From: Minisyncoccota bacterium
Lineage (GTDB): Bacteria > Patescibacteriota > Minisyncoccia > Phycocordibacterales > JABAAK01
Direction: 5' to 3'
DNA: 64,000 nucleotides
Assembly (NCBI GenBank): GCA_965216295.1
Contig: OZ244141.1
Location: forward strand, 78,163 to 142,162
Below the pieces are notes generated by a model. The model saw only the letters and a program-made list of their open reading frames with translations. It did not search any database and was not told where the DNA came from. Below are positions 6,848-60,145 of the stretch, piece by piece; within the stretch, counting starts at the first letter, position 1; each line of letters starts with the position of its first letter. A program made the position numbers and the translations under genes.

Positions 6848-6849
6848 AT

Positions 6850-42835: not shown

Positions 42836-43603
42836 ATGGAATCAATACTCACAACCGTTTTTTATCAACCGGCAATAAATATTTTATACCTCGGATCAAA
42901 TATTGTTGACCCGAGCGTATTTTGGTTGGGGATTTTTTTTCTTGTACTTATTATTAAAATTGCACTTTTCCCTGTAAGCGTTGGCGCCATACAAACGCAA
43001 CAGAAAATACAAGGAATTCAGGGAAAATTGCAGTCTTTAAAGGAGCGATATAAAAATGACAAGGAAAAACTAGCCTTAGAAAGTATGGCTCTTTATAGAA
43101 AAAACAACATTAATCCATTTAAATCAATATTTATACTCCTTATACAAATACCAATTATTATCACCATTTTCTTGGTCACAAGAGATGTGTCCCAAGGAGA
43201 TACTTCATTCGACCTACTCTACTCATTTATTAATCAACCAGAACCACTCTTAACAACCATGTTTGGCCTTGAACTCACAGCACCTCTAGGCAGTGGTTTA
43301 ATCTTCTCTTCCGCAACAGTAACGTTTGCCATACTTTCTGGCGCAACACTATTAATGCTTATGAGGCAGTCAGCAAGGCGTGTTTCTGGAGAACAGGCAA
43401 TGCGTATTCAAAAAATACTACAATTAGTATTCACACCACTTGTAATGTTTTCTGTTTTTTGGTTTGGCGCCGCCGTTGGTTTTTACTTTTTTATTAATAA
43501 TATTATTTCAATGATACAGGAAACATTTATCAGAAAAGGTATTGGGGTAGATGAGAAAAAACCCTCAAATAAGATAACCAATCAAGTTACTACAGCCCAA
43601 TAA
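42836..43603 (+). CDS. yidC: Membrane protein insertase YidC (short Oxa1-like form)
   Basis: rpmH-rnpA-yidC synteny; 5 TM; conserved YidC core (LALESMALYRKNNINPF...). Confidence 0.8.
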   Translation: MESILTTVFYQPAINILYLGSNIVDPSVFWLGIFFLVLIIKIALFPVSVGAIQTQQKIQGIQGKLQSLKERYKNDKEKLALESMALYRKNNINPFKSIFILLIQIPIIITIFLVTRDVSQGDTSFDLLYSFINQPEPLLTTMFGLELTAPLGSGLIFSSATVTFAILSGATLLMLMRQSARRVSGEQAMRIQKILQLVFTPLVMFSVFWFGAAVGFYFFINNIISMIQETFIRKGIGVDEKKPSNKITNQVTTAQ

Positions 43604-44873
43604 CCCACAACGAAAGATCTCTTTTATTAATAAAGAAAAACAAAGAACCATCATCATTTATCCACGGGTGTATAATATCAAATTTTGTACCAGATGTGAG
43701 TGCTAAAATATCCTCATCTTTTGGATTTAGTATAATCTCTTGTTCTTTGGTGACAGCATTAATATACACAACAACATCACTCAAAACAACATCTCCTTGA
43801 TACCAAGAGTCAGGATAAATTGCTTTATATCCAGAGAGTGTCCTGTTGGGGAGATTGACAGGAACACCACAGATGAATATGCCAGAGTGACCATCACATT
43901 TTTCAGTAAAAGTTTTATACAACGCGGCAAACTCACCACCACCATCAGCACTTGCGACCATTGCCCCACCAATGCTTTTATATTTATATAAAAAATTAGA
44001 CGACTCATCTAACAAAACAGAGCCACCCGAACGAGAATAGAATATTTTTTCTGGTAAGGGTGTGGGTGTCTGTGTATTAAGAGCAAAGATATGAGCAGGA
44101 ACTCCGGTTGCGGTCGGGGTTTTGATGGTAAGGTATTTCCCCCTTCTCCATTGGGGTAACCAAACATTACTATTAGATCTCCAAATAACTCTTGTATCCG
44201 CGCTGTTTTCTAAATTGACCAATGTTCCAACAGAACCTTTGTTTGTTTTTTTAATAAAAAACAACTTGTTTTCACCATCTGTTGCGACACGCACATTGTT
44301 CTCAAAAACAGTCTTTGTATTAGTTTTTGGAACAAAGTCATCAAAAAACGATTGAGAAATTAGATCATTTGCTTGGTTTTCAAATTGAAATAACACCCTA
44401 CCATTCTTAAACAAATAAGCTTTTTGTATATACAAACCATCACCTTGAAAAGTTTTCTTTATACTATACGGATTAATGGTTGCTTGGTGTCGATCTCCTC
44501 TACCCGCCTCTATAATACGAACAACCCATCCCAACCCTTCTTCCTTATCAACACGATATCCAGCAACCGGTCCTTGAAAAATTTTCAAAATACGAAACAC
44601 ACCACCCTCAAGGTCATCGGGTGTGGGTGAATCCGTCACTATAATTGGTGGCTCAATAAAGGTTATTGGAGAAACAGAGGGTTCGTTGATTGGTGTTGGG
44701 ACGGTGCCAAATGGGCTGGTTGATTTGGGTTTTTGATTGATTGTCGTTACAGTTTTTTTTGGCATATCATCAGTGTTGTATATATAGTACAAACCAAACA
44801 ATACCAATAAAATAATAATCGCAAGCGCGATAAGTAGTGATCGGAGTAGTTTTTTTAAAGAACCTGTTTCCAT
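43590..44873 (-). CDS. Secreted/membrane-anchored hypothetical protein (last gene of the T4SS-like cluster)
   Basis: N-terminal TM (LLIALAIIILLVLFGLYYIY), Pro/Thr linker, then a beta-rich extracytoplasmic domain. Confidence 0.4.
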   Translation of the reverse strand: METGSLKKLLRSLLIALAIIILLVLFGLYYIYNTDDMPKKTVTTINQKPKSTSPFGTVPTPINEPSVSPITFIEPPIIVTDSPTPDDLEGGVFRILKIFQGPVAGYRVDKEEGLGWVVRIIEAGRGDRHQATINPYSIKKTFQGDGLYIQKAYLFKNGRVLFQFENQANDLISQSFFDDFVPKTNTKTVFENNVRVATDGENKLFFIKKTNKGSVGTLVNLENSADTRVIWRSNSNVWLPQWRRGKYLTIKTPTATGVPAHIFALNTQTPTPLPEKIFYSRSGGSVLLDESSNFLYKYKSIGGAMVASADGGGEFAALYKTFTEKCDGHSGIFICGVPVNLPNRTLSGYKAIYPDSWYQGDVVLSDVVVYINAVTKEQEIILNPKDEDILALTSGTKFDIIHPWINDDGSLFFFINKRDLSLWVIGL

Positions 44874-44983
44874 ACTATTAAGTATACCGCACAAAGAAAA
44901 AGTGATAAAGAAAGAATCTCACACCACAAACCAGATCTTTTATGTTTTAAAAAAGACGTTATTATTTCAAACACAAGCAATAG

Positions 44984-45466
44984 CTATTGTATGATAAAAT
45001 TAAGGAATTTTAATGAAACCAAATCAGGGTTAACGGTATTTAATATTATATAGGATCCTATAAGGATAACCAAACTCAATAATCCATTTTTTAGCACTGT
45101 TAAAGCCTCCTCTCGCCCCTTCACATGACCACCCGCAGTTAGTGCTAATAGCCTTACCCCATAAAAGGCAATAACAACCGTAGTAAATATTGCGGCAAGA
45201 GAAAAGGCAATTTTAAAAAGTGCCGTCAATAATTTTCGAATTAACTTATTTATTTCTTCTTGATCCTTAATATTAACTCCAATCCCAGCTCCGGGTGCGG
45301 GAGGTTTAAATCCTGGTATGCCAACAGAAAAATAAATTGTTTGCATTTGGTTTTGAGAAACAGCGGTCATTTTTTGTATAGGGGTGGTGAAAAAAAACAG
45401 CGCTGTTGTAAAAAAAGCAACCACTATGGTAACGCAAATGTATTTATAGCTCGATAGTAAAATCAT
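44984..45466 (-). CDS. Small membrane protein, candidate VirB2/TrbC-like pilin
   Basis: Signal-like N-terminus plus two C-terminal hydrophobic helices. The size and topology fit T4SS pilins. There is no sequence-level family proof. Confidence 0.3.
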   Translation of the reverse strand: MILLSSYKYICVTIVVAFFTTALFFFTTPIQKMTAVSQNQMQTIYFSVGIPGFKPPAPGAGIGVNIKDQEEINKLIRKLLTALFKIAFSLAAIFTTVVIAFYGVRLLALTAGGHVKGREEALTVLKNGLLSLVILIGSYIILNTVNPDLVSLKFLNFIIQ

Positions 45467-46526
45467 ATTCTGCTTTTTGTTTTAACACATCACCCTTACG
45501 CTGTTCCGCGACAACTTTGAGGAAAAACGCACCCTCATCACCACTTAATAATAGATTCACCCTCCTTGAATCTTCTTCTAATTTTTCTTCACCATTCTTA
45601 AACCAGTTGTAGGTAATAGTCCCATTATTAAAAGCTTCAAGTGAAAAGAAGTATGGATATACTGATAGTGTTATTGGTTCACTGAACAAAACATTTTTAC
45701 CAAACGCTCTGTTGTGTAACACGCCACGAAGTGCTTCAAATTCATACACTAGTAATTTAGGGAAATTTCGAGGAATGGTAACACTCCTTTTTACCACAAA
45801 GGATTGATTGTTTAATTTTTTTGCCGTCACCGTCACCTTAATTTTTGGTAAATCATACCGAGGCTCGCTTGGTATGATAATCACTGATTTTCCAACCCCC
45901 TGTGCTCCCTGAAACACTCTTCCATTCACCTCCCACACAAAAGAAAAATCTCTTTCTGTAAACACAGAGGTGCCACTTTGATACAACAAATCTGCTGAAA
46001 CACGAATCGGAGCATCTCTTCCTGGCAACGGATATCCAAGATAGTGTGCGGGCGTTACCACCTCACCCTCCCAAATAATATCAAGTCGCACCGGGTATAT
46101 AATTATTTCTTGGGTGAGTTGTTGTCGCAAACCACCATAGTAAAAAGTTATATTACAAGTGATAGTGGTTGGTCGACTTAAATCCAACACCTTAAAATCA
46201 ATCTGTAACAAATCATTAAATTTTTCATCAATCTTTCCATTAATGAACCACTTAGTGGAATCAACAGCGCTTTTTGAAACCTGACCAGAGGTAACCTTTA
46301 TTGTTACAGTGTCACCAAGAGCTGGTGTTGTGGTGCTAGCAGAGATACCCAGAAGATCGCTGGCGGCAGGAATGTTTTGAGCAATCACTGGTATATAGCT
46401 GAGGTGTATAAGTAACACACATATTAAATAGTAGGGCGTATTTGAGTGTCTAAAAATCGACAACATAATATTCGCAGTATAACAGGGTGTTGCACGAACT
46501 CTATTTTTTATAGGAAAACACCACAC
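45444..46526 (-). CDS. Secreted hypothetical protein (beta-rich)
   Basis: Signal peptide (YYLICVLLIHLSYIPVIAQ). No family recognised. Confidence 0.4.
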   Translation of the reverse strand: MWCFPIKNRVRATPCYTANIMLSIFRHSNTPYYLICVLLIHLSYIPVIAQNIPAASDLLGISASTTTPALGDTVTIKVTSGQVSKSAVDSTKWFINGKIDEKFNDLLQIDFKVLDLSRPTTITCNITFYYGGLRQQLTQEIIIYPVRLDIIWEGEVVTPAHYLGYPLPGRDAPIRVSADLLYQSGTSVFTERDFSFVWEVNGRVFQGAQGVGKSVIIIPSEPRYDLPKIKVTVTAKKLNNQSFVVKRSVTIPRNFPKLLVYEFEALRGVLHNRAFGKNVLFSEPITLSVYPYFFSLEAFNNGTITYNWFKNGEEKLEEDSRRVNLLLSGDEGAFFLKVVAEQRKGDVLKQKAEYDFTIEL

Positions 46527-46965
46527 ATGTCAGGTATATCGACCACAAAGGAAATGTAGAGAGAATAGGGATGCTTTCAATAATGAATATAATTGGCAAA
46601 ACAACAATCAAACCAACCTTACCTTTTTTAGGAGGATTAACACCAAAGAGGACTAGGTAGAAAGACAGTATTATGATTGACAGAGTAAGGGGGAGTGCGA
46701 GGAGTGATGTGGAGAGTGCAATTGGATATCCTGCAAGACCTTGACCAATCTCCTCAAACCCAAAAAACGAGAGAGCAGATCCAACTACAGCAGCCACAGA
46801 TAAACCAGCAAGTGTTACTGGATTAAAAAATACCACAAGAAGAGGGAGATATATAAAATCAACAATCTCTTTGAAAACAAGGAGGGTTGTTGCAACAATC
46901 AAACCACCCCTCGGAAGCTCTGTAGATCCACTTCCGCCACGCTGTAAACGACGAATTTGTATCAT
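46501..46965 (-). CDS. Small polytopic membrane protein (about 4 TM), T4SS-like cluster component
   Basis: Four hydrophobic helices; overlaps neighbours on the same strand. Confidence 0.4.
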   Translation of the reverse strand: MIQIRRLQRGGSGSTELPRGGLIVATTLLVFKEIVDFIYLPLLVVFFNPVTLAGLSVAAVVGSALSFFGFEEIGQGLAGYPIALSTSLLALPLTLSIIILSFYLVLFGVNPPKKGKVGLIVVLPIIFIIESIPILSTFPLWSIYLTCVVFSYKK

Positions 46966-46969
46966 ACAA

Positions 46970-48790
46970 TCAACTTACCGAATCATCACCACCCTCCTTT
47001 TTAGATTTTATTCGGAGCAGTTGAGATGGATCAGAGGTAATAATCTGATCTTCTGTGTAAGAAGCGATAATTTTAATAGCAACTCTTTTAAGGCCGGCGA
47101 CAAACAAACCCTCCCCAACCGCTGATTCTAAGAGTAAAAACTTTTCATTATCTGTAAGGTTAAAAATTTCTTGTAACCTCTCTATTGATGTTGCAGATTG
47201 TCGTAGCAAAAGAACCAAAGAGGCGTTGTTTAAAATTGGTTTTCCGTAAGGAGAGTTTAAGAAATCACTAACATCTTGTGTGATTGTGGCAACTCCAAGA
47301 TAGTATTTTCTACCACGCTTTACCAATCCAAACAGAAAAATAGCACTCGCCTCATCACGCATCATTACCCACGCTTCATCGACAACCAGGAGTCGTTTGC
47401 GTAATACCTTACGCACATTGTTCCATATATAGTGTGTAATAATATACATTGCTGCAGGTTTCAACTCATCTTCCATATCTCTAATGGAAAAAACAACCAA
47501 ATCTTTATTCATATTGACATTAGTTGGTTGATTGATAAAACCAGACCATGACCCTCCTGTATATTTTCCAAGACGACCAACCAACCCCTCACTCCCATCC
47601 AAACCAGCAAGTACTAAGGCAAAATCAGAAAGCAGTGGCGCTTCCGCGTTTTCAAAGTTAGCATTTGGAGTTATGTCTTTCAAGGCGTATGTCTCTGTAA
47701 TAGCTTTATCAAGAAGAGATTCTTCTGCTGCGGTCAGATTGCCTAAAAGAACACGGAACAATCCAACAAGATCAATAATATTACTTCGCAAGACATCGGC
47801 TGGATTTTCATCCTCACGAATAGCAGGAAGATCAAATGGATTGATGTGATGTTCTGAATTAAGTGAAACATTGAAATGCCGACCATCAACCGCCTTAGAT
47901 AGAGGTTCAAACTCCATCTCAGGATCAATAACAATAACATTAATACCTGCCATCAATGATCGCAACACTTCCAATTTCATAGCGTATGATTTACCAGCAC
48001 CTGATGTTGCAAAGGTAACCGAGTTGTAGTTTGGTAATGAAAAACGGTCAAATAGTATGAGTGATGCGTTATGCTGATTAACACCATAGAGAATCCCTCG
48101 ATCTGCAGAAAGACCGAATGAGACAAATGGAAATATGCTTGAGAGTGGTTCTGAGTTGAGTTTGGTGTGTATAGAAAGCACATCATTTGCAAACGGGCTA
48201 GTGCTCTTAAATCCCTGCTCTTGTTGAAACAAACTTGGCTTTACGAATATAAGACGACCATCAAGGAGTGATCGCAAATCCTTTTCTGTATCTGCTAATG
48301 ATTCCAAAGAATCACCATAGATAGTAATGTATATACCAACATCAAACAACAATTCTGTTGCCTGTTGAATTCGATCACGCAAATGCTCCAAATCTCTCCT
48401 CGCAATATCAAGTTTTGGATCACGAACCATACCCTTACGTTCTCTTTCCAGAATCTGACTCTCCACCTGCGCAACCTTCTTTCTAAAATCACGCAAAACA
48501 TTTTTTGTCTCAATGGGGTGTATGTGTATAGCGATGTCAAATTCTCTGCTAATGTTGATGATTGGTGTAAACCAACCCTCATTTAAAAAGCGAGGATACG
48601 AGACTATTGCAAGTGTCCGTGCGTACTTACCACCAAGCTCAATGTGTTTGGGAGCAACTTTGATTGCTGCGGGGGCAATAACATCTCGCAACCCAATACT
48701 GCTACGCTCAAACATTTCTTGTGGCATAAAAGAGGTAACCCCTTTCCCCTCCACAGCGCTTTTCTTTTTAAAAATATCTAAAAGTCCCAT
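46970..48790 (-). CDS. VirB4/TraC/TrsE-family conjugation/type IV secretion ATPase
   Basis: Walker A FATSGAGKSYAM, Walker B LLVVDEAWVMM, and the VirB4 N-terminal domain pattern (IELGGKYARTLAIVSYP). Confidence 0.8.
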   Translation of the reverse strand: MGLLDIFKKKSAVEGKGVTSFMPQEMFERSSIGLRDVIAPAAIKVAPKHIELGGKYARTLAIVSYPRFLNEGWFTPIINISREFDIAIHIHPIETKNVLRDFRKKVAQVESQILERERKGMVRDPKLDIARRDLEHLRDRIQQATELLFDVGIYITIYGDSLESLADTEKDLRSLLDGRLIFVKPSLFQQEQGFKSTSPFANDVLSIHTKLNSEPLSSIFPFVSFGLSADRGILYGVNQHNASLILFDRFSLPNYNSVTFATSGAGKSYAMKLEVLRSLMAGINVIVIDPEMEFEPLSKAVDGRHFNVSLNSEHHINPFDLPAIREDENPADVLRSNIIDLVGLFRVLLGNLTAAEESLLDKAITETYALKDITPNANFENAEAPLLSDFALVLAGLDGSEGLVGRLGKYTGGSWSGFINQPTNVNMNKDLVVFSIRDMEDELKPAAMYIITHYIWNNVRKVLRKRLLVVDEAWVMMRDEASAIFLFGLVKRGRKYYLGVATITQDVSDFLNSPYGKPILNNASLVLLLRQSATSIERLQEIFNLTDNEKFLLLESAVGEGLFVAGLKRVAIKIIASYTEDQIITSDPSQLLRIKSKKEGGDDSVS

Positions 48791-48791
48791 A

Positions 48792-49397
48792 CTATAGTTT
48801 TGGTACCGGCGCAGTGTCGCCCGGATTAAATGTTTGATACAACAATTCGGTAACAGCTTCGGTGTCTAGGCGAACAGCGCGAAGGCCTAAAGAGCGTATG
48901 TTATTTTGCACAAAAGAAACGCGTTGTTGTAGTTGTGTTTGAGCCTCTTCAAAGAAATTTTGTTGCTCGTTTGTTTTAGATTTTTTAAATGATAACGTTA
49001 GTGATTTTATTTGCACTGGAGAATAACCAATAATAAGAAAAAACTGCTTCGTCATAATTTCATTTGATTCAGTAAATTCAGTAATAAATTTGATATATTC
49101 TTTGGTTTGCAATCTCAACAACTCTACCTCCTGTTTGTTGTAAAGATTTTCTAAATATTCTAGGTGCTTTTGTATATTGAGGCGACGAGATTGTATAAGA
49201 ATCTGTATATTCACCTCTAATGAATTAAGCATACTCTGGAACTGATTGAGTATCGCTTCACGCTCCAAGTCAGACTTTAGATCAAAGTTTAATGAAGAAA
49301 CCAGCACGATTGCACAGAATATACCGTCCTCTCGAATGATAGTGCCATCTCGTATTTCTTTCAAAGGAACAAATGACTGTGTTGTTTTCTGTTTCAT
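48792..49397 (-). CDS. Hypothetical cytoplasmic protein, possibly a VirB4 N-terminal-domain-like accessory
   Basis: VPLKEIRDGTIIREDGIFCAIVLVSSLNFDLKSDLERE resembles the start of the VirB4/TraC N-domain. Immediately upstream of the ATPase. Confidence 0.3.
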   Translation of the reverse strand: MKQKTTQSFVPLKEIRDGTIIREDGIFCAIVLVSSLNFDLKSDLEREAILNQFQSMLNSLEVNIQILIQSRRLNIQKHLEYLENLYNKQEVELLRLQTKEYIKFITEFTESNEIMTKQFFLIIGYSPVQIKSLTLSFKKSKTNEQQNFFEEAQTQLQQRVSFVQNNIRSLGLRAVRLDTEAVTELLYQTFNPGDTAPVPKL

Positions 49398-49400
49398 ACG

Positions 49401-49823
49401 CTATGATGTTTGCCGACTGTCTTGAGAAAATTGTATCTCAGTAAGTAATTCTTTAATACGATCTGATTCATTATGATCTTTTTGAGTTTCTGAAACTTCT
49501 TCATTTTTTTGAGCCACTCTTTTTCGTGTAACCGCAACAGATTCTTGTTGTTTGTTCCAGACATATAATTTATCATTCAAGAGATATGTCAGCATTGCTC
49601 GAAGCAGGTCTATAAATGATTGGCTGTTGTGTTTGTAAAACGCTAACAATCCTCCAAGAACTCCAACAGGAGCACCCACAAGCAACGCGGTCCCAAACCC
49701 AACAAAGAAGAATAAAAAAATAAAGAGTCCAAGAGCTCCTCCTATGTACACAGCCTGCACAAAACTGAGCCCAAACAAAATGGTATCTGGAATATCAAGG
49801 TTTTGTGGTACTTGAAACCGCAT
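49401..49823 (-). CDS. Small 2-TM membrane protein (VirB3/PrgI-like candidate)
   Basis: Two adjacent TM helices followed by a charged tail. Positioned before the VirB4-like gene. Confidence 0.35.
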   Translation of the reverse strand: MRFQVPQNLDIPDTILFGLSFVQAVYIGGALGLFIFLFFFVGFGTALLVGAPVGVLGGLLAFYKHNSQSFIDLLRAMLTYLLNDKLYVWNKQQESVAVTRKRVAQKNEEVSETQKDHNESDRIKELLTEIQFSQDSRQTS

Positions 49824-49864
49824 ACACCCCCAGTATACCGCTTCTTTGCCACCCCACCTTCCAA

Positions 49865-50176
49865 TTATTGAGGTCGAGTGAGTATGATGCTTTTAATCTT
49901 TTTAAAGATCCTTTCATCAACAGCTTGGACAATCATCTTTTTCTCTTCATTAGAGACTCCCATCCGTTTATCAATGCTTTGAGTAAAAGAATCAGACCGC
50001 TTAATACCTGTAATGACACCAATCACATCTTCCTCAAGCGTACTGATTTGTGGGATAGATAGCTGAAATTCTTCAGCCAATAGTGCCAACTCTTTTTCTA
50101 GTATGGTCTGTATCGCATCACGTTTTTTATCACCATACTTACTCAATATCGCCAAAAAATTCCTTTTATAGTTCAT
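49865..50176 (-). CDS. Small hypothetical cytoplasmic protein
   Basis: ORF only; helical and charged. Confidence 0.3.
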   Translation of the reverse strand: MNYKRNFLAILSKYGDKKRDAIQTILEKELALLAEEFQLSIPQISTLEEDVIGVITGIKRSDSFTQSIDKRMGVSNEEKKMIVQAVDERIFKKIKSIILTRPQ

Positions 50177-50179
50177 ACA

Positions 50180-52096
50180 TTATTTATTATCACCTTTCTT
50201 TTTGGTACCATAGTATTTGTGAGTAAATTCCCTTGATGCGTTCGTGATTTTCCTTGCTCTATCATTAAGGATTTTTTTAGCAAATGCAATTCTTGCATCA
50301 CTATTTGGAGGAGCTTCTTTTGCTCGACCACTTCCTGCAATAATCTGATCAGCCTTCTTTCCATCCACCTCTCCTATTCTATCTGGATGATGTTGATTCA
50401 TGAGAAGTTTGTACTGATCTCGCATTTTTTCAGGAGAAGTTTCGTTTGACGTACCAAGTATTGCGTGATAGTCATCACCACTCACTTCATCAAGCTGTTT
50501 TCCTGTTGGAGGGGTATATCCTTTTTCTGTGCCATCTGAAGGGTTGTATGGGAGTGCCAGTTTTGATTCTTGTAGGTGTTCTAAACGACGGTTTTTGGGT
50601 ATCGGTGATCCACCACCACCACCACCATCATCTCCTGCTACTGATGGACGAGGGTTAGTTGAAGTTTTTTTATCTTCTTGTGTTTTAGCATCTTTCTTGC
50701 CACCACGATGACGATTAAAGAAGCCAGAAGCAGCACTTGATTTGAATAATATATGTCGATCTTTTAGCGATCTCCCCCCTTTCTTCTTATCACCCTGATC
50801 AATTGATCGTACATCACCAACAAACTCCTTTGTTATTCTCTTTGTTGCTTTCCCTACAGATGTTTTTCCAAGCCAAGCAGCTCTCCTTTTCGTCCACCCA
50901 TGAAATTGACCTTTTCCAACACTATCCGAAAAATCCCTCCCCTGCCATCGCCAATAATTTCGCAAATTCTGCAAACGACCTGTCAAGTTCACCCCGCCCT
51001 TAAGGGCTTTTTGTATCTTGTTAAAGAGACTGATAACGTGGAGTATGAGGAATATCGTAAGGAAGGCGAGAAAGATACTTCCTATAAATTCCTCATAAGG
51101 ACTATTTCCCAAATTTTCATTAAGTATCTTATCCATCAATTCTGTTATTTTAAATACAAACCATAATAGAAAGAAAATAATAACCGGCATTAACGCGGTG
51201 CTCTGTAATTTACCAACCCACCAGATTTTAAACTTTCCAAAAACATTCTTACCATCACCTCCGACAAATAAGGCAATTACGGCAATTGGTGATGTGATGA
51301 GTACAAGAATGGCAACAAAGAATCGTTCAAAAAAGAGAATGATAAGGTAGAAAAATGATGCTGCGAGAGCAAACTTGGTAATCATTGAGAAAAGATGAAA
51401 AAGAATACTCGCTTTAGCGATTGCGGTAGAGCCAGCGGGTGCACTGGCGCCAGAAGATGCACCCGAAAGGGAAATTTTTTGGTGTAAATTGGGATTTATA
51501 AGGTTATCAGCATACAAAGAATACAAACCAGATTGCTGTTGGAACAGAAGTGCAAACAGATTTGATACATCATAAATAAACAATACAAAAAAACCACTAA
51601 AGTTTACCAACAACGCAGCAATAAGTAGTCGTACCAACGTTGCCTTGCTATACCATCCTGGCTTTTCTCGAAGATGACTAAAAACAATCCCAACAGCGAT
51701 AGTTATGAATAGTGCAACAATAATAAGATTGGCGACATCTCTAAAAAACACCCAAACATCCTGAATAATACCTGATTCAGTGGGTGCAACAATGGTGCTA
51801 AATTCCAAGACAGTGAGTGTGGTGGCATGACGAAGCGCATCAAGAGACAAGTCTAATACATTACTTCCGATGGTGTTGTTAAGAAAATCAAACATTAGCT
51901 CAACAACCTTATAAATGGTACCAATAATTGCTGATGCCACCGCCCCCGCCCCCCCCGCTACATCTATTGGTGTTTCTGGTTTCGGAAATCCTGGTCCTTG
52001 TGCGAAGACCCATTGCCAGTCAACAAGTAGTACAACAAGCAATGCAATACAACACCACCCAGCTGTTTTAAATATTGTAATATTCACTTTTTTCAT
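50180..52096 (-). CDS. VirB6/TrbL-like polytopic membrane protein with a C-terminal J-like domain (HPD motif)
   Basis: Signal plus about 6 TM and a cytoplasmic tail ending in DDYHAILGTSNETSPEKMRDQYKLLMNQHHPDR (J-domain-like helix II/III with HPD). Confidence 0.5.
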   Translation of the reverse strand: MKKVNITIFKTAGWCCIALLVVLLVDWQWVFAQGPGFPKPETPIDVAGGAGAVASAIIGTIYKVVELMFDFLNNTIGSNVLDLSLDALRHATTLTVLEFSTIVAPTESGIIQDVWVFFRDVANLIIVALFITIAVGIVFSHLREKPGWYSKATLVRLLIAALLVNFSGFFVLFIYDVSNLFALLFQQQSGLYSLYADNLINPNLHQKISLSGASSGASAPAGSTAIAKASILFHLFSMITKFALAASFFYLIILFFERFFVAILVLITSPIAVIALFVGGDGKNVFGKFKIWWVGKLQSTALMPVIIFFLLWFVFKITELMDKILNENLGNSPYEEFIGSIFLAFLTIFLILHVISLFNKIQKALKGGVNLTGRLQNLRNYWRWQGRDFSDSVGKGQFHGWTKRRAAWLGKTSVGKATKRITKEFVGDVRSIDQGDKKKGGRSLKDRHILFKSSAASGFFNRHRGGKKDAKTQEDKKTSTNPRPSVAGDDGGGGGGSPIPKNRRLEHLQESKLALPYNPSDGTEKGYTPPTGKQLDEVSGDDYHAILGTSNETSPEKMRDQYKLLMNQHHPDRIGEVDGKKADQIIAGSGRAKEAPPNSDARIAFAKKILNDRARKITNASREFTHKYYGTKKKGDNK

Positions 52097-52102
52097 ACAT
52101 TA

Positions 52103-55100
52103 TTAGAAAAAGGGGCGCGGCACATTAACATCAGGTATATTAACAAAATCATCCAATCCAGACGGCGGTGTAGTTATTTTCCGAATACTTTCATCCCTAA
52201 TCCCATAATCAGTTTTCAACGACCTATCTTTTGTTCTGGACGATCTATCACCACCAGGAACTGATTTCCAGAAATTGGAATAATCCCCCAAAATCTTTTG
52301 CTGAACTCGTCCTCGTAACGCAGCGTTATACTGTCTGCCAATTGTATTGCTACTGAATTTTGTTGCCCTAAAGGTCTGAATAGCATCATCATCTTTACTA
52401 AAAATTCTAGCAAAATTAACTGTTTTTGCTTGATCATATCCTGTTCCGTATGTTCCGTAAGATTGTGACTGTAGATTAAATGTAGGAGTGTTTTGTAATG
52501 TTATGTTGGGAATATCAATTATTCCATTTTCATAAAATAGGTAAATGACTCTGGACAACGCCCGAGCTATATTCTTGGTTTTTGTTTCACGAACTTCCTT
52601 TTTCAATGTATTAAGTGTACCTGATTCACAAAAACCTTGGCCCTCAACAGTAACATTAATTTTATCTGTACATTTTTTATAAGCAGGCGCTGCCCCGTTT
52701 TTAATTTTTTTCACAAGAGCTTTCTCAACATTTTGTGGCGTGACTTCATCACTTCCCACCAACTTACTCCTAATTTTCTTTACCCCCTCATTTCTCTCAT
52801 TTTTATACCCATCACTCAAAAAAACATCATCCTCTCCTCGAACACGGAGATATACTCCTAACGTAGATTTATAATCACCAACCAGCTTTTCAGCTACTAT
52901 CTCTTTCTGTTCTAGGTAGGATAAGTCATTGTGAAAATTTCTAAAAGAAAGATTGTTAACATCTTCGTAATAGAGGAATGTATCAGAAACATTCTTCTTC
53001 TCATCCACTATAGTGGTTTCAGTCACATCAATCTTTTTTGTTTTACGACTAATGATGACAATTTTATTCCGCCTCTCTAAAGTTTCTTTAATTTGCACTT
53101 TGGCTTTGAATCCAGAAGGTATCTCGCCGAGCACTTGCTTGCTTTCCAAACTCTTTTTCACATGATCTTTATATATCTCATAAGCTTTATAATCCTGGTC
53201 AAGTTTGGGGTTTGTAACAAGATAGTTGCCCTCATTACCAATGACACCACTCAATAAGTATCGAGCATCACCCGCTGCTTCGACATATTCTTCTGCTTCT
53301 GCGTAACCACTTTCGTCTATAAACGCTACAAAGACCGAATCACCTCCATTAGCAAGTGCATTCGCATTACGATCAAGTTGACCGGTGTCCACCGCATCTA
53401 TACCTCCTTCTAAGAGGTTTTGAAAAACATTACTGAATGTTTGCTCTATTACACTAGATAGAAGGCTACCAATTTCACTAAACTCATCAGCTTCAGACAC
53501 TTGTTCGAGTGGCAGTTGTGAAGCGAATGAAAAGCTTTCTGAGATTAAACTGTAATCCTGATATATAGTTGGTTGTGTTAAGCAGTTAATAAAAGCATCA
53601 ATATCAATCAATCCATCAGAGTTATAACTTCCATCACTACCACACCCATCAGCCTTGTCAGCATCATGACTAGACATAAGAGCTCCAGTTTCAGATGTTA
53701 CCTGCTCTCTCTTTGAAACCGTATCACCAGATATATTATTACGAATCTCTTGTGCATCAAAGAATGTTCCAATGTATAGTTCACTAAACGACTGTGCTAC
53801 ATTAAATGGTCTAAAAGTCACATCTTCTTCTATAATTTTCACATTAACATCTATATCCACATCCACGCCAAAATCAACAGTGCTTTTATTAATATTGTCA
53901 AATATATCACTCCCCTTACACGCCCTGGTTTTAATAATACCAATCCCCAATTCATCCTTTATAAGGCGTGTAAAATCAAGATTAAGGCTGTCATTACAAA
54001 AGAACCCCAAACCCTCTCCTGTCAAAAAACTTCCAACAGCCTCGTCAGCTAAATTTTTCCAGTACTCAGAAGGATTGTCTTGGAAAAAATTTGCTTCATT
54101 GCTCCAATTTACATATTTAGAAAGAAGACCTTGGGTTAGCGCGCTTGAAGCGATTCGTGCAATTCCATCGAGAAGACATTCCTTACCCACATTTGCCAGA
54201 TCGTTAGTTGGTACGCTGATTATAGAAGCGAGACCTCCTAGACCAGCAGCCAAGCAAGCAAGCAAGGTCGCCGCTGCCGCCACAACGCCCGATAAAAGAC
54301 TGCTGCCCGATCCACCACCACCACCACCTCCTTCACCTTCAAGAAGTGTTTCACCAAAATCTTCAAAATCTTCATCTGAGTTTGTTTGCACTTTTAAAAA
54401 TTCAGGTGCCACCACCTCTTCTTCATTCAACCCTTGATAAACAGCAGATATACCCCAATCTCCATCTGTTAGTTTTAAACGAACGCTACCATCACCCTTT
54501 CTTGTTTTTTCTACAACTTCCCCCGTATCTTGATTGAGCGCCACGATAGTTATTTCAATATTAGGAAATCCAGACACTTCAATTCTGTTGTCTATTTCTC
54601 CAGAAGGTGATTCAAAACCCAAAGTTTTGTTGGGCGTTTTTATCTCCAACAGGTCAGGAACATTTGTGGTTATTTCCTTACCTAAACTATCTTTATATGT
54701 AAAACTCAATGACCACTTACCATTTCCTAGAAGTAAGTCTATATAATCATTATCTTTTTGCCTTTCCTTTTTCAAAACCCGATTCCCTCTAGATGCTTTA
54801 ATAGTTATTGGGGTTTTTGGGTCTGCACTATTTATGTTATTTATTGTTATTTTATTTATTAAATTTTCACTAGGTGAAGTAAAGGAGAGAAATATGGGTT
54901 TGAGTGAAGAACCACCACCTTCTTCAGAACCAGATGGATCCCCACCACCATCTTTTTCAGAACCAGATGGATCCTCACCACCACCTTCTTCAGAACCAGA
55001 CGGATCCCCACCACCATCTTTTTCAGAACCAGACGGATCCCCACCACCATCTTTTTCAGAACCAGACGGATCCCCACCACCATCTTTTTCAGAACCAGAT

Positions 55101-55606
55101 GGATCCTCATTACCACCTCTGGGATTATTAGTTCTTCTAGTGATAAATTTTATAAAAGCAGCATTCACAGAACTTCCGGTGTATAAGGAATTATTCCTTC
55201 CAGCACCGTTAAGATTGGAACCATTACCACCATCAAAACCAGACGAACCATTACCACCATCAAAACCAGACGAACCATTACCACCACCACCATTACCACC
55301 ATCAAAACCAGACGAACCATTATCACCATCAAAACCAGACGAACCACCACCACCTCCAGGAGCAGTTGTGCTACTATCAAGGTCACCACCAGGAGGTTTT
55401 ATATTAAATATCCTAGCCAAATCTTTTGATGTTTTTGGTTCTAAAGAAGTTCCTCTTAAGGACGGGTCTACCAAAACCTCGCCATCTCCTAGTCGATCAA
55501 GCGTTCCTCGTTTTGCTTCGTCACCCTCTAAGATAAATAAATAGACACCGCTCGCTACCAAAACAACCACAGAAACAACACCAATAAGGATAAATCTAAA
55601 AGTCAT
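52103..55606 (-). CDS. Giant (1167 aa) Gly/Asp/Pro-rich repeat protein with an N-terminal TM and an internal hydrophobic segment
   Basis: Repeats (GNGSSGFDGG) x4 and (DPSGSEKDGGG) x6; poly-Gly stretches; mid-protein TM (VVAAAATLLACLAAGLGGLASII). Confidence 0.5.
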   Translation of the reverse strand: MTFRFILIGVVSVVVLVASGVYLFILEGDEAKRGTLDRLGDGEVLVDPSLRGTSLEPKTSKDLARIFNIKPPGGDLDSSTTAPGGGGGSSGFDGDNGSSGFDGGNGGGGNGSSGFDGGNGSSGFDGGNGSNLNGAGRNNSLYTGSSVNAAFIKFITRRTNNPRGGNEDPSGSEKDGGGDPSGSEKDGGGDPSGSEKDGGGDPSGSEEGGGEDPSGSEKDGGGDPSGSEEGGGSSLKPIFLSFTSPSENLINKITINNINSADPKTPITIKASRGNRVLKKERQKDNDYIDLLLGNGKWSLSFTYKDSLGKEITTNVPDLLEIKTPNKTLGFESPSGEIDNRIEVSGFPNIEITIVALNQDTGEVVEKTRKGDGSVRLKLTDGDWGISAVYQGLNEEEVVAPEFLKVQTNSDEDFEDFGETLLEGEGGGGGGGSGSSLLSGVVAAAATLLACLAAGLGGLASIISVPTNDLANVGKECLLDGIARIASSALTQGLLSKYVNWSNEANFFQDNPSEYWKNLADEAVGSFLTGEGLGFFCNDSLNLDFTRLIKDELGIGIIKTRACKGSDIFDNINKSTVDFGVDVDIDVNVKIIEEDVTFRPFNVAQSFSELYIGTFFDAQEIRNNISGDTVSKREQVTSETGALMSSHDADKADGCGSDGSYNSDGLIDIDAFINCLTQPTIYQDYSLISESFSFASQLPLEQVSEADEFSEIGSLLSSVIEQTFSNVFQNLLEGGIDAVDTGQLDRNANALANGGDSVFVAFIDESGYAEAEEYVEAAGDARYLLSGVIGNEGNYLVTNPKLDQDYKAYEIYKDHVKKSLESKQVLGEIPSGFKAKVQIKETLERRNKIVIISRKTKKIDVTETTIVDEKKNVSDTFLYYEDVNNLSFRNFHNDLSYLEQKEIVAEKLVGDYKSTLGVYLRVRGEDDVFLSDGYKNERNEGVKKIRSKLVGSDEVTPQNVEKALVKKIKNGAAPAYKKCTDKINVTVEGQGFCESGTLNTLKKEVRETKTKNIARALSRVIYLFYENGIIDIPNITLQNTPTFNLQSQSYGTYGTGYDQAKTVNFARIFSKDDDAIQTFRATKFSSNTIGRQYNAALRGRVQQKILGDYSNFWKSVPGGDRSSRTKDRSLKTDYGIRDESIRKITTPPSGLDDFVNIPDVNVPRPFF
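54910..55125. repeat. Tandem 33-bp repeats (about 6 copies) encoding DPSGSEKDGGG units
   Basis: ttcagaaccagatggatccccaccaccatcttt repeated with minor variants. Confidence 0.8.
55219..55355. repeat. Tandem 27-bp repeats (about 4-5 copies) encoding the GNGSSGFDG units
   Basis: accaccatcaaaaccagacgaaccatt repeated. Confidence 0.75.
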
Positions 55607-55625
55607 TATATTCAGTATAACTCAG

Positions 55626-56486
55626 TTATTTACTCAGTTCTTTTATAATATCTTGCAAACTCTGGAGAAAAACATCAAACTTTACCGTCGTCGTACCTCC
55701 TTCCGGAGCATTCGGGTCAGTTGGGGCTAATAAACGTATACCCAACACAACATTATCAGCTGTTGGAGGTAATAATGAAACATCTACCGCAGCACATGAG
55801 TCAGAAACCCTTTTGATAAATAGTGTGTATTGCGAATATATTGCGTGTGGTACTCGTCGTGGTAACTTTTGAAGTATCTCTTGACACAAAAGTTGTAATT
55901 GAAGCGCTTCTTCACGACGACCTTTCTCATTTGCAAATGCCCCAATAACAATTTTTTCTACAGGAGTTTTTATAGCGCCAAGTAACTGAATTGCAGAAAT
56001 GAATTCAGAGAGCACCGCGCCCCTATCAACCGAATCATCAACTTGCACAACCAAATCTGAATCCTCGCTTTTTGATAATTTTTTAGTAACATCTGCAACA
56101 GAATCTTTTACTATTTGATCAATCTCTTCTTCAGTTACATTTTTGTAACCATCTCGTGAATATAATATTTTGCGCAATACATCAGAGGTACGCTCACTCG
56201 GACCACCTTGTTCTTCTGTCGTTCGTGCCGTTGCCTCATCAATTTCTGCTTGGTAAGCAAGTGATGTTGGATTATCTGGATCTGTTCCTTTAAGAACTTC
56301 CAGCCAATTCGGCACGCCATCACCATCAATATCTTCATCTGTAACAGAATACTTGGTCAAAAAAATATTTCCTGGTTCCTTATCAATATTGTTGTATAAC
56401 CATATCATCAGTACGATAAACCAAAACACAAAAAAAACAATGAGTATAAATAATGTTTTTCTCTCTACTAGGGGCATTCGCCGCAT
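55626..56486 (-). CDS. Membrane-anchored extracytoplasmic protein (first gene of the T4SS-like cluster)
   Basis: N-terminal TM (LFILIVFFVFWFIVLMIWLY); DGDGVPNWLE calcium-binding-like motif. The track ORF extends to 56594. Confidence 0.4.
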   Translation of the reverse strand: MRRMPLVERKTLFILIVFFVFWFIVLMIWLYNNIDKEPGNIFLTKYSVTDEDIDGDGVPNWLEVLKGTDPDNPTSLAYQAEIDEATARTTEEQGGPSERTSDVLRKILYSRDGYKNVTEEEIDQIVKDSVADVTKKLSKSEDSDLVVQVDDSVDRGAVLSEFISAIQLLGAIKTPVEKIVIGAFANEKGRREEALQLQLLCQEILQKLPRRVPHAIYSQYTLFIKRVSDSCAAVDVSLLPPTADNVVLGIRLLAPTDPNAPEGGTTTVKFDVFLQSLQDIIKELSK

Positions 56487-56994
56487 TTGAGGAGGACGTT
56501 TTTCCAATCGCCCATTCTTACTATGCTTATTGTGAGGTGTTGGGTGAGGATGCATACACACAGTATATGGTAAAATGAAGTGTGGTGATATCAAACAGTA
56601 ATCAAACCTCTTTGGCGATAAGAGGAAAAATTGCCATTATTGTATGGAGTCTCTCTTTCTTCGCATTTTTTAGTCCTCAAGAAGTAGACGCGTTTTTCAT
56701 ACCCGAGGGAGGTCGTATATTAATTGCTCTCCCGCCCTGCCATCTTCCTATCCCCGGTTCAGTATGGACGCTCAGTATTAATTTAGCAACCAAATTACCT
56801 CACCCAGAACTGCGATTTCCCGTAGCACCAAGAGCACACTATATTCCACCACTACCTATAACAAATACTTTAGGACAAGCATTACCCATCAGGTTGCCGT
56901 GCTGTTGGTATATAGGGATAGCTATCATATGCAACCCTGTTCCAGGATTTCTTCCAGCACCACCCTCTCTTTACGGTGCCTCTTTTTAGAAAGA

Positions 56995-57875: not shown

Positions 57876-57911
57876 TATAAAAATAAAGATGCGCTCATTG
57901 CTGAGCGCATC
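57876..57911 (-). terminator. Intrinsic terminator after paralog A
   Basis: GATGCGCTCA-gcaa-TGAGCGCATC hairpin (10-bp GC-rich stem) followed on the minus strand by TTTATTTTTAT. Confidence 0.7.
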
Positions 57912-57938
57912 TAAAGACTAAAACCTAGCCGTGAACTC

Positions 57939-58526
57939 TTATTTCAGAGCCGTTTGATCCATTACCCCTCTCAATTCATCAAGTCTCTCATCCAACGCGA
58001 CAGTTATCCGAGTTCTATAAGCAGAAATGACATCAACAGGTAACCTTAAAGTCTTACTATCAGCAAAATACTCTTTGCTCGAGTTCATAATGCTTTCCAC
58101 ATATGCAGGATTATCAGCCTGAGCATTGCAGTCGCGAACATAGATAGTAGTAATAGCATCAACCATCATGAGGTCTTCTCCGTTTACATGGAGAAGTAAA
58201 CGGCAGTATTCACCACCATCAACTCCCAAAGCATCATCAATACGACTAAAAACCGAATCACAATAACCCAATTTTTCAACCGCAACAACACCATCTTCAA
58301 GAGCGTGAACTATTCCAATGCATGTCTCCGATTTTCCGGATTCGGGTGAATGACGCTCACGCCACACAGACGCAACATAAGGATATGTTTTTTCGGTCAC
58401 ATTTTCCGGAGTTGTGGAAGTTACATCAGGGTACCCTCCAGTTCCAAAAGACGGACTCGCAGCAAACGCCACGGGAAAACTAAGCAGGGTGGCAAGAGTT
58501 CCACCAAACAAAAATTTTATATTCAT
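57939..58526 (-). CDS. Secreted small Cys-containing protein, paralog family member A
   Basis: Signal peptide MNIKFLFGGTLATLLSFPVAFA|ASPSFGTGGYPDV. GGAGAAG RBS. Four conserved Cys. The track ORF 57939..58568 uses an upstream TTG. Confidence 0.6.
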   Translation of the reverse strand: MNIKFLFGGTLATLLSFPVAFAASPSFGTGGYPDVTSTTPENVTEKTYPYVASVWRERHSPESGKSETCIGIVHALEDGVVAVEKLGYCDSVFSRIDDALGVDGGEYCRLLLHVNGEDLMMVDAITTIYVRDCNAQADNPAYVESIMNSSKEYFADSKTLRLPVDVISAYRTRITVALDERLDELRGVMDQTALK

Positions 58527-58609
58527 AATACTTCTCCAAAGCAATGAAAAACAAAAAACCCGCACCAAAGATACAGGCAGACTAAAGAACGATAATCTAA
58601 TCCAAAAGA

Positions 58610-58638
58610 ATTGTACTATATAAACATGTGGTTGTCAA
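58610..58638 (-). promoter_or_regulatory. Sigma70-type promoter of paralog A
   Basis: Minus strand reads TTGACA-17 nt-TACAAT, about 85 nt upstream of the ATG. Confidence 0.6.
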
Positions 58639-58650
58639 ATAGCTGTTTAG

Positions 58651-58686
58651 TATAAAAACAAAGATGCGCTCATTGCTGAGCGCATC
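58651..58686 (-). terminator. Intrinsic terminator after paralog B
   Basis: Identical hairpin plus U-tract. Confidence 0.7.
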
Positions 58687-58713
58687 TAAAGACTAAAACC
58701 TAATCGCGAACTC

Positions 58714-59298
58714 TTATTTCAGAGCCGTTTGATCCATTACCCCTCTCAATTCATCAAGTCTCTTATCCAACGCGGTAGTTATCCGAGTTCTATAAGCAGA
58801 AATGACATCAACAGGTATCCTTACTTTACTATTAGCAAAATAATCTTTATATTTTTCCTTCAAATTCATCATGTCTTCTATATATGCAGGATTACCAAGC
58901 TGAGTATTACAATTGCGAACATGGATATTAGTAATAGCATCAATTGGCATAAGATTAAGATCCACCACTTTTTTGTTGAAATAGCAGTATTCACCAACAC
59001 CAACTCCCAAAGCATCATCAATACGACTAAAAATCGAGCCACAATAACCCAACTTTTCAACTGCAAAAACATCATCTTCAAGAGCATGAACTATTCCAAT
59101 ACATTCCGGTTCATCAGGCGACCAGGACTCATACCACACATCCAGAATATAAGGATATGTTTTTTCGGTCACATTTTCCGGAGTTGTGGAAGTTACATCA
59201 GGGTACCCTCCAGTTCCAAAAGACGGACTCGCAGCAAACGCCACGGGAAAACTAAGCAGGGTGGCAAGAGTTCCACCAAACAAAAATTTTATATTCAT
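58714..59298 (-). CDS. Secreted small Cys-containing protein, paralog B
   Basis: Same signal peptide and N-terminus as A; diverged middle; C-terminus conserved with A (VISAYRTRIT.ALD.RLDELRGVMDQTALK). Confidence 0.6.
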   Translation of the reverse strand: MNIKFLFGGTLATLLSFPVAFAASPSFGTGGYPDVTSTTPENVTEKTYPYILDVWYESWSPDEPECIGIVHALEDDVFAVEKLGYCGSIFSRIDDALGVGVGEYCYFNKKVVDLNLMPIDAITNIHVRNCNTQLGNPAYIEDMMNLKEKYKDYFANSKVRIPVDVISAYRTRITTALDKRLDELRGVMDQTALK

Positions 59299-59381
59299 AA
59301 TACTTCTCCAAAGCAATGAAAAACAAAAAACCCGCACCAAAGATACAGGCAGACTAAAGAACGATAATCTAATCCAAAAGA

Positions 59382-59410
59382 ATTGTACTATATAAACATG
59401 TGGTTGTCAA
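59382..59410 (-). promoter_or_regulatory. Sigma70-type promoter of paralog B
   Basis: TTGACA accacatgtttatatag TACAAT on the minus strand. Confidence 0.6.
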
Positions 59411-59422
59411 ATAGCTGTTTAG

Positions 59423-59456
59423 TATAAAAAAGGTGCGCTCATTGCTGAGCGCACCT
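59423..59456 (-). terminator. Intrinsic terminator after paralog C
   Basis: GGTGCGCTCA-gcaa-TGAGCGCACC variant with compensatory stem change, plus TTTTTTAT. Confidence 0.7.
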
Positions 59457-59543
59457 AAGGGCTAAAACCTAATCGCGAACTCTTATTTCAGAGTTGTTTA
59501 ATTCACACCGCCTATTTTAACCTAGCAATCTTCCTCTCAGTCA

Positions 59544-60023: not shown

Positions 60024-60104
60024 AATACTTCTCCTAAGTAATTTAAAATGAGTCCTGCGCCAAAGATACAGGCAGACCAAAGAACGATAATCTAATCCAA
60101 AAGA

Positions 60105-60133
60105 ATTGTAATACATAATAGTGTATTTGTCAA
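60105..60133 (-). promoter_or_regulatory. Sigma70-type promoter of paralog C
   Basis: TTGACA aatacactattatgtat TACAAT. Confidence 0.6.
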
Positions 60134-60145
60134 ATAGCTGTTTAG

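Follow-up and report, generated by a model that had tools for sequence, protein, structure and literature searches.

The closest described relatives of the locus reported here are the type IV secretion systems (T4SSs) of the Patescibacteria, which most of these ultra-small bacteria encode on the chromosome beside the replication origin. A survey of 3035 Patescibacteria genomes found the VirB4 ATPase in 2417 of them, with nearly all of these sequences grouped monophyletically within MPF-FATA (Quinonero-Coronel et al. 2025, PMC12102498). In that survey, TrsD, PrgI/VirB3, VirB6, and PF18895/VirB2-like pilins adjoin VirB4, VirB8 and VirB1 could seldom be recognized, just 103 genomes had relaxases, and the Paceibacteria locus lies near dnaA, dnaN, and KsgA. 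Transposon sequencing (Tn-seq) in Southlakia showed that epibiotic growth requires a homologous cluster, including its pilins; the cluster lacks a relaxase and a coupling protein (Wang et al. 2023, PMC10633639). A 2025 review speculates that pilus and T4SS serve jointly as a conduit through which exchange with the host takes place (PMC12857230), and a 2026 preprint describes tubular structures, possibly T4SS pili, at the parasite–host interface (10.64898/2026.06.21.733656). Here, we analyze a cluster of 11 genes at positions 43590-56594 (minus strand) of a 64,000-nucleotide stretch of contig OZ244141.1 ("the window") from a Minisyncoccota bacterium. It is very likely a chromosomal, vertically inherited T4SS of the Patescibacteria clade, derived from the monoderm (Gram-positive-type) mating-pair-formation class MPF-FATA and situated beside dnaA and dnaN in a Paceibacteria (Kaiserbacteria-like) genome, which serves host interaction and not conjugation.

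Five of the 11 genes, numbered g01 to g11 from the first to the last gene of the operon (Table 1), are assigned to type IV secretion: VirB4 (g07), a TrsD-like protein (g06), PrgI/VirB3 (g05), a VirB6-like protein (g03), and a VirB2-like pilin (g10). The g07 product scores 346 bits against the NCBIfam model conju_CD1110 (curated cut-off 325, profile positions 179-733), followed in order by the VirB4 of the Mycoplasma integrative conjugative element (ICE; 259 bits), F-type TraC, VirB4_CagE, and TrbE. It also matches Pfam P-loop_TraG (E 2e-22) and, in the PDB, Thermoanaerobacter VirB4 (4AG5, E 7e-40) and R388 TrwK (E 3e-5). The protein consists of the middle and C-terminal ATPase domains, with intact Walker A (SGAGKS) and Walker B (LLVVDEAW) motifs. 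These profile matches place g07 with VirB4, away from other AAA/HerA ATPases. It has more than 8000 homologues, the best source-named ones almost all from Patescibacteria. The 120 best database matches are 65-100% identical, and their named sources are Kaiserbacteria, Paceibacterota, Patescibacteria, or "unclassified bacterium," apart from a single metagenome-assembled genome labeled Alphaproteobacteria.

The N-terminal part of VirB4 that is absent from g07 is, judging by its profile matches, supplied by g06. This protein aligns with the N-terminal 170-230 positions (from about position 2) of NCBIfam VirB4 models (E 2.4e-11, 4e-6, and 1e-5) and, along its entire length, with the NCBIfam TrsD model (E 1.4e-4), and its homologues carry the PF26593 TraC-like annotation. 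We compared the locus with 81 related loci, many of them on truncated contigs. A separate open reading frame (ORF) of the g06 type was found in 80 of 80 loci; as a rule, virB4 follows it after 1-6 nt. We had considered a frameshift, a pseudogene, or a sequencing error as the origin of the split; because two separate ORFs recur in every one of these loci, all three were ruled out.

The remaining three assignments draw on profiles, position, and fold. The g05 product matches PF12666 (PrgI) at E 2e-7 and 31.9 bits, which exceeds the gathering score of 27, and PrgI adjoins VirB4 in 79 of the 81 related loci. For g03 itself there was no direct Pfam match to VirB6/TrbL, and a PDB profile search with its family returned only noise; TrbL/VirB6-type domains (PF04610 or PF19590) are nevertheless present in 3 of 30 positional and 6 of 22 database homologues. 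The transmembrane (TM) core of its AlphaFold model has a pLDDT of 75-85, and Foldseek against the PDB returned R388 TrwI/VirB6 chains as the top three matches, making VirB6 the best natural fold match. A long hydrophilic C-terminal tail follows the approximately seven TM segments, an architecture that resembles "extended VirB6." The g10 product consists of a leader and two hydrophobic helices with a terminal ..NP.L.. motif. Its positional homologues (n = 25) match PF18895 T4SS_pilin in 22 cases and TrbC/VirB2 in 3, and g10 itself has a weak NCBIfam match to the Mbov_0395 pilin-like family (E 0.003). A hidden Markov model (HMM) of the pilin family picked out g10 as the sole such gene in the window.

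Within the tail of g03, residues ~540-630 are J-domain-like and carry an HPD motif (Pfam DnaJ E 2.4e-4, below the gathering threshold; model pLDDT up to 88). A J-domain as a conserved feature of g03 was ruled out, as the segment occurs in 1 of 30 homologues and HSLKF replaces HPD in the nearest relative.

Pfam and NCBIfam scans of the cluster proteins gave no match to VirB5, VirB7, VirB9, VirB10, VirB11, or VirD4. The same scans found no SLT, CHAP, M23, or lysozyme domain in any of the 11 proteins. A gene for a class A penicillin-binding protein (PBP) lies 4 kb from the cluster, and we regard it as housekeeping.

The 11 ORFs occupy the whole interval, with spacings from g01 to g11 of 19, 6, 3, 41, 3, 1, 4, −26, −23, and 89 nt. 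A preliminary description of this stretch, made from the sequence alone, had reported eleven co-directional and tightly packed or overlapping genes, which the ORF list confirms, and our hydropathy scan agrees with the topologies it had described, with single TM segments in g01, g09, and g11, two in g02, about seven in g03, four in g08, none in g04, and a signal or anchor plus two hydrophobic helices in g10. The giant repeat protein it had named indeed carries near-perfect tandem repeats in its DNA (33 bp × 5.9 at 54911-55106 and 27-bp units at 55218-55358). Its list ran to twelve entries because two small proteins were counted; a single small ORF of 103 aa lies between the VirB6-like gene and PrgI. 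Alignments of relatives begin at residue 14 or 37 of g01 and at residue 21 of g09, so the true starts are probably M14 (56555) or M37 (56486) for g01 and M21 (46466) for g09. This would place the cluster start near 56555 or 56486 and remove the overlap of g08 and g09. G+C content across the cluster (0.37-0.41) is similar to that in the rest of the window, and a promoter and terminator scan of the cluster found sites no more numerous than in shuffled sequence. The six genes left without a family assignment (g01, g02, g04, g08, g09, and g11) are small or membrane-anchored, with predicted membrane segments in all but g04.

Table 1. Features of the window, with protein identity to the close relative (ENA ERZ25071281)
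Feature	Coordinates	Strand	Description	Identity (%)
g01	55626-56594	-	322 aa (longest ORF), bitopic membrane protein, first gene of the operon	60
g02	52103-55606	-	1167 aa, giant repeat protein	40
g03	50180-52096	-	638 aa, VirB6-like polytopic channel subunit	43
J-domain-like segment of g03	50180-50560	-	C-terminal, HPD motif	
g04	49865-50176	-	103 aa, small soluble protein	67
g05	49401-49823	-	140 aa, PrgI/VirB3-like membrane hairpin	70
g06	48792-49397	-	201 aa, TrsD/TraC-like, VirB4 N-terminal domain as its own polypeptide	86
g07	46970-48790	-	606 aa, VirB4 ATPase	92.5
g08	46501-46965	-	154 aa, small four-TM protein	42
g09	45444-46526	-	360 aa, signal- or anchor-bearing surface protein	56
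g10	44984-45466	-	160 aa, VirB2-like T4SS pilin	47
g11	43590-44894	-	434 aa, N-terminally anchored extracytoplasmic protein, last gene of the operon	69
orf135	56582-56989	+	135 aa, Pro/Cys-rich, signal-peptide-like N-terminus, between rsmA and the operon	
dnaA				98
dnaN				93
rsmA				97
Terminator-like hairpin	57887-57912	-	11-bp stem, 6 G-C pairs, T-rich tail	
Secreted-protein array	57939-61493		five paralogous small secreted proteins	
Adjoining paralogues	61801-63097		two proteins without signal peptides	
PilB/GspE-type ATPase gene	33048-34838	+	Pfam T2SSE, MshEN	
Class A PBP gene	36934-39444		4 kb from the cluster	
Peptidase_S74 protein	2409-3113	-	endosialidase-chaperone domain (Pfam)	
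SocA/Panacea protein	5248-5847	-	antitoxin domain (Pfam)	
Lamin-tail protein	5927-6847	-	lamin-tail domain (Pfam)	
Lamin-tail protein	6850-9222	-	lamin-tail domain (Pfam)	
814-aa ORF	24862-27306	-	between tRNA genes	
361-aa ORF	28359-29444	+	between tRNA genes	

The position of the locus is what separates it from a mobile element. The cluster is flanked by yidC, dnaA, and dnaN on one side and by rsmA (ksgA), an array of small genes, and uvrD on the other; the other 40 kb hold genes for ribonucleotide reductase, a class I tRNA synthetase, PolA, RuvAB, a class A PBP, six tRNAs, and similar functions. In a one-genome-per-species scan, 578 of 600 matches were confirmed relatives (Kaiserbacteria, Paceibacterota, Patescibacteria, and similar). 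Across the 81 related loci, tblastn matched PrgI in 79, TrsD in 80, yidC in 63, dnaA in 55, and rsmA in 52. Those inspected gene by gene share a recurrent order: uvrD, rsmA, a one-TM protein of ~290 aa, a large one-TM protein, the VirB6-like protein, a small protein, PrgI, TrsD, and VirB4, followed by varying sets of small multi-TM, Ig-like, pilin, and ~430-aa proteins and then by yidC-dnaA-dnaN.

Similarity alone would fit another origin, in which the cluster is an ICE or an integrated plasmid remnant with its relaxase, coupling protein, and integrase beyond the window. VirB4, TrsD, PrgI, and the pilin-like protein resemble most closely the components of conjugative elements of the Gram-positive and Mycoplasma types, and the scan for relaxases and integrases was confined to the 64-kb window. 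That Pfam scan detected no relaxase, VirD4, integrase, or transposase domain among the ORFs it covered. Outside the cluster, it took in 31 ORFs (30 of at least 160 aa outside both cluster and array, plus the truncated C-terminus of UvrD) and, in addition, four of the seven array ORFs, leaving aside the array ORFs sec5, cy1, and cy2 and a 169-aa ORF at 36413-36922. No compositional shift was seen in the 64 kb either, and in the survey cited above the 2417 genomes with VirB4 stand against 103 with relaxases (PMC12102498). The decisive evidence is that the locus occupies the same chromosomal site in the related genomes examined: each of the related Paceibacteria loci that we inspected gene by gene is bracketed by uvrD-rsmA and yidC-dnaA-dnaN, and individual flanking genes are matched in 52-63 of the 81 loci. 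This conserved housekeeping synteny largely refutes an ICE and in effect excludes it, and we give that explanation only the slightest probability.

In the host-interaction T4SS that we favor, TrsD, VirB4, and PrgI would form an energizing platform at the cytoplasmic membrane, the VirB6-like protein would provide the conduit across it, and the pilin would polymerize as a short tube spanning the thin wall. Contact with the host cell would fall to the fast-evolving exposed proteins described below, and macromolecules would move between epibiont and host, as exported effectors or imported host material, with no role in DNA conjugation. Two other functions have to be weighed against this one. The machine could instead take up DNA, in the manner of H. 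pylori ComB or archaeal Ced, importing host DNA as a source of nucleotides or for transformation. The ATPase has a local NCBIfam match to the archaeal DNA-import protein CedB (E 5e-9), yet at 35 bits against 346 this is much weaker than its match to VirB4. Also in favor of uptake, candidate phyla radiation (CPR) bacteria generally lack nucleotide synthesis. In the ABY1 class the T4SS co-localizes with competence genes (PMC12102498), but Pfam scans of our window found none adjacent to the cluster. In Southlakia, moreover, deletion of comEC abolishes competence and not viability, while the T4SS is essential (PMC10633639, via PMC12857230). Taken together, we judge DNA uptake to be improbable.

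The cluster could also be primarily an adhesive organelle, a surface fiber for attachment to the host that translocates nothing. A VirB2-like pilin accompanied by several exposed Ig-like, repeat, and propeller-like proteins would suit such a fiber, as would the adhesin-like speed at which the exposed parts evolve and the lack of a coupling protein nearby. Against a fiber of this kind stand the VirB6-like channel and the VirB3/VirB4 platform, which are kept under strong purifying selection, and the dual role of VirB4 and VirB6 in known systems, where they act in pilus biogenesis as well as in the passage of substrates. CPR bacteria also have adhesive type IV pili already, and a PilB-like ATPase gene is present in this window. 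We hold a purely adhesive role to be unlikely.

Several points weigh against our reading of the cluster as a host-interaction T4SS of the Patescibacteria clade. The functional data all come from another class, the Saccharimonadia, and a function here is assigned by analogy. Membership of g07 in the monophyletic Patescibacteria VirB4 clade is consistent with its database matches, on which the placement rests. The pilin's own match to PF18895 (E 2.4e-5, 24.7 bits) is 1.9 bits below the gathering threshold of 26.6, and the Pfam and NCBIfam scans of the cluster proteins revealed no VirB8-like or VirB1-like component. The search for VirD4 and relaxases extended over the 64-kb window, such that a distant copy is possible; VirD4-like genes lie far from virB4 in most Patescibacteria genomes (PMC12102498), and the argument from the absence of VirD4 is therefore weaker than that from synteny.

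With these points in mind, most of what the preliminary description had proposed for the apparatus holds. Its labels VirB3-like, VirB4-N-like, VirB6-like, and pilin-like each now have profile or fold evidence, and its view that VirB4 was the only confidently assigned component was too pessimistic. It had allowed that the ATPase might fall with non-secretion AAA ATPases, and the CD1110 and 4AG5 matches place it elsewhere. The absence of a relaxase, VirD4, or mobile-element gene from the window, which it had reported, agrees with our Pfam scan, and the check across related genomes that it had suggested returned the same gene order in the loci inspected gene by gene. Synteny, profiles, and literature together support the chromosomal, non-conjugative apparatus of a CPR episymbiont that it envisaged.

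Comparison with a close relative (ENA ERZ25071281, represented by two loci of the same strain, L082 and L083) showed markedly uneven divergence within the locus (identities in Table 1): the membrane and exposed components share just 40-70% of their protein sequence with the relative, whereas DNA identity in the flanks is 88-98%. In 400-column bins, DNA identity is 96-98% in rsmA, 53-75% in most of the cluster, 82-88% in virB4, and 81-94% on the yidC/dnaA/dnaN side, with a sharp break in divergence at the rsmA/orf135 junction, near 56990. Synonymous divergence (dS, Nei-Gojobori) falls within 0.02-0.07 for rsmA and, among four array genes compared, for all but sec1 (0.17). It is 0.35-0.45 for dnaA and dnaN and 0.76-1.26 for all T4SS genes; these are pairwise comparisons with dS near saturation, in which allelic replacement and rapid divergence are not separable. 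Against L083, the ratio of nonsynonymous to synonymous divergence (dN/dS) is 0.05 for VirB4, an estimate that puts the ATPase under purifying selection, and 0.38-0.50 for the VirB6-like protein, g08, the pilin, and g02. Three of the closest other Paceibacteria pairs behave similarly, with DnaA 98-99% and VirB4 94-98% identical and VirB6-like proteins just 50-53% identical, while two further close pairs are uniformly similar and have no two-speed pattern.

The exposed subunits thus diverge several-fold faster than the ATPase and the flanks, the pattern expected of a host-specificity module. We tentatively propose, as a possibility that we do not consider the likelier one, that the locus is a two-speed, hyper-divergent island, in which VirB4 and TrsD are nearly frozen while the membrane and exposed parts (the VirB6-like protein, pilin, four-TM protein, giant protein, Ig-like protein, propeller-like protein, and orf135) turn over, or are exchanged, at a rate well above that of the genome around them and set host range. 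Several of these parts might then be CPR-specific subunits that replace VirB8, VirB1, or VirB5, with the four-TM family (D35, E..P) and the "KEC..VNWINSGF..LGFLC" domain encoded upstream of VirB6 as candidates.

The genes without family assignments nevertheless have recognizable conserved features. In g01, the TM segment (residues 48-66) is followed by a TSP3-like DxDxDG calcium-binding repeat (weak Pfam TSP3_bac match, residues 88-106) and a helical ectodomain. Residues D87, D89, D91, W96, E98, and D104 are invariant in 15 homologues at the same position, and g01 has no sequence match in the PDB.

The giant protein g02 begins with a TM segment, Gly/Ser/Asp-rich tandem repeats, and two beta-rich repeats, continues with a second hydrophobic segment (441-459) and a conserved, Cys-containing, predicted all-alpha domain at residues ~430-600, and ends in a lineage-specific stretch of 550 aa. 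A HMMER search of 1.84 billion representative proteins (E ≤ 1e-3) returned 46 relatives, all over residues ~430-600, and beyond the nearest relative conservation is limited to this domain, whose signature is VPVxD..KECxLD..VNWINSGFxGxPxF..LGFLCSPF..CTLSD. In other Paceibacteria, the domain directly follows an N-terminal TM helix in proteins of 450-800 aa, encoded just upstream of the VirB6-like gene. Neither g02 nor its conserved domain has a Pfam or PDB match. We considered the domain as a VirB8-like NTF2 or a VirB5-like fold; its AlphaFold2 model is all-alpha at low confidence (pLDDT 52.7), and Foldseek found no fold match (best E 0.76). The giant gene is a single ORF here and in L083 (1377 aa), two ORFs in L082 (8197-12331), and two genes of 833 and 559 aa in the more distant locus L001 (2259-6391). 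As L082 and L083 come from the same strain, the two ORFs in L082 probably reflect a long-read frameshift. From this comparison, the N-terminal repeat region of g02 looks like a variable add-on to a conserved core of TM segment plus domain.

Of the shorter genes, g04 has no Pfam or NCBIfam match, and weak homologues of ~190-240 aa occupy its position in 11 loci. The four-TM protein g08 belongs to an uncharacterized family, without a Pfam entry, that is commonly encoded directly after virB4. Its positional homologues (n = 25) have D35 in common, as well as an E..P motif (E129, P132) within the last helix, and an HMM of the family matched g08 alone in the window. The surface protein g09, present in 66 of the 81 loci with conserved W, G, and P columns, appears to comprise three Ig-like repeats, every one of them carrying the motif W-x-x-N-G; in the PDB, the profile of its family hits Ig-like domains of the phage T4 protein Hoc (3SHS, E 3.9e-5). 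In 55-58 of the 81 loci there is a counterpart of g11, with a conserved Cys pair and invariant columns that include K331, C332, C341, W363, and G366. Its sole PDB match is a weak one to TolB (E 0.083), and it has no Pfam family; g11 may be a TolB-like beta-propeller.

The small opposite-strand gene orf135 has a called counterpart of 132 aa in the equivalent place in both L082 and L083. Given that call, with 65% identity and a dN/dS of 0.28 in the close relative, it is probably real. Its dS of 0.85 resembles the values of the T4SS genes and is unlike that of rsmA (0.047), and it is possibly associated with the T4SS locus. In several other relatives, too, a gene on the opposite strand separates rsmA from the cluster.

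On the far side of rsmA, five small secreted proteins, paralogues of one another, are encoded in tandem; they have Sec-type signal peptides, several Cys residues, and the common leader MNIKFLFG...AFAASPSFGTGGYP, and are adjoined by two paralogues without signal peptides. The preliminary description had put this array forward as a candidate set of substrates for the secretion apparatus. We find no basis for that suggestion: the proteins have Sec signal peptides, rsmA and a strong terminator hairpin lie between them and the cluster, and none of the 81 related T4SS loci carries a homologue of the array, uvrD directly abutting rsmA there. The terminator-like hairpin, the strongest in the region, stands directly after the last secreted-array gene and before rsmA. 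The array is lineage-specific and recurs only in the nearest relative, as seven genes, with dN/dS of 0.6-1.0. No Pfam family was matched by the four array proteins scanned, and the pilin-family HMM matched nothing anywhere in the array. With no homologue in the 81 loci either, we also rejected the whole array (57939-63097) as pilins or conserved T4SS partners.

Other features of the window touch the cluster less directly. The PilB/GspE-type ATPase gene (Pfam T2SSE, E 4e-110, with an MshEN domain) lies 9 kb from the T4SS, and its sequence points to type IV pilus machinery; it adjoins ruvB and tsaE and is therefore not within a pilus operon here. Upstream of the housekeeping block, the minus strand at 2409-9222 carries a set of unusual surface or phage-like genes (Table 1). 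Two ORFs of 814 and 361 aa in the housekeeping region have no Pfam match at E ≤ 0.001.

The Patescibacteria T4SS is the leading candidate for a physical conduit between epibiont and host, and it is essential in one genetically tractable species. The value of the present locus is that it offers a clean and complete Paceibacteria example, together with a list of conserved unannotated subunits with defined motifs. It is a correct independent re-identification of a system published in 2023-2025 and not a new kind of system. Its gene set, its lack of a relaxase, and its position at dnaA, dnaN, and ksgA had all been published, which makes this a rediscovery. From the Paceibacteria arrangement of the Patescibacteria-clade T4SS (PMC12102498) there is no essential difference: both combine an MPF-FATA VirB4 with a separate TrsD, PrgI/VirB3, VirB6, and a PF18895 pilin, with no relaxase or type IV coupling protein (T4CP) nearby and with dnaA, dnaN, and ksgA (rsmA) alongside, and here there is one pilin gene and not an array. 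The genes left unannotated on the published locus maps correspond to g01, g02, g04, g08, g09, and g11, which the features above describe in part.

The T4SS of Southlakia epibionticum ML1 (SEML1_0006-0019; PMC10633639) is likewise chromosomal, with Gram-positive-like subunits, predicted pilins, and no recognizable relaxase or coupling protein. It differs in belonging to the Saccharimonadia, in its array of six pilins, in the peptidase and lysozyme genes next to virB4, where Pfam and NCBIfam scans detected no hydrolase in our cluster, and in its demonstrated essentiality. The staphylococcal Trs systems of pGO1 and pSK41 share the order TrsC-TrsD-TrsE, that is, a VirB3-like protein, a separate TrsD of ~200 aa, and VirB4. 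They are, in contrast, plasmid-borne and conjugative, with a relaxase, a T4CP, and a VirB1-like hydrolase and without a pilin; the pGO1 subclass also has no recognizable VirB6 (PMC12102498), unlike the present cluster with its VirB6-like protein. Clostridioides CTn2 (CD1110-type) and the Mycoplasma ICE (Mbov_0397) provide the best-scoring curated VirB4 models, and the pilin-like Mbov_0395 of the latter is weakly matched by the pilin here. Both are mobile, with integrases or DDE recombinases and relaxases, while our VirB4 is split and its locus chromosomally fixed. The diderm type IVA systems, R388 Trw and Agrobacterium VirB, differ in having components that were not detected here: the VirB7/9/10 outer-membrane core, VirB11, VirB5, VirB8, VirB1, and VirD4.

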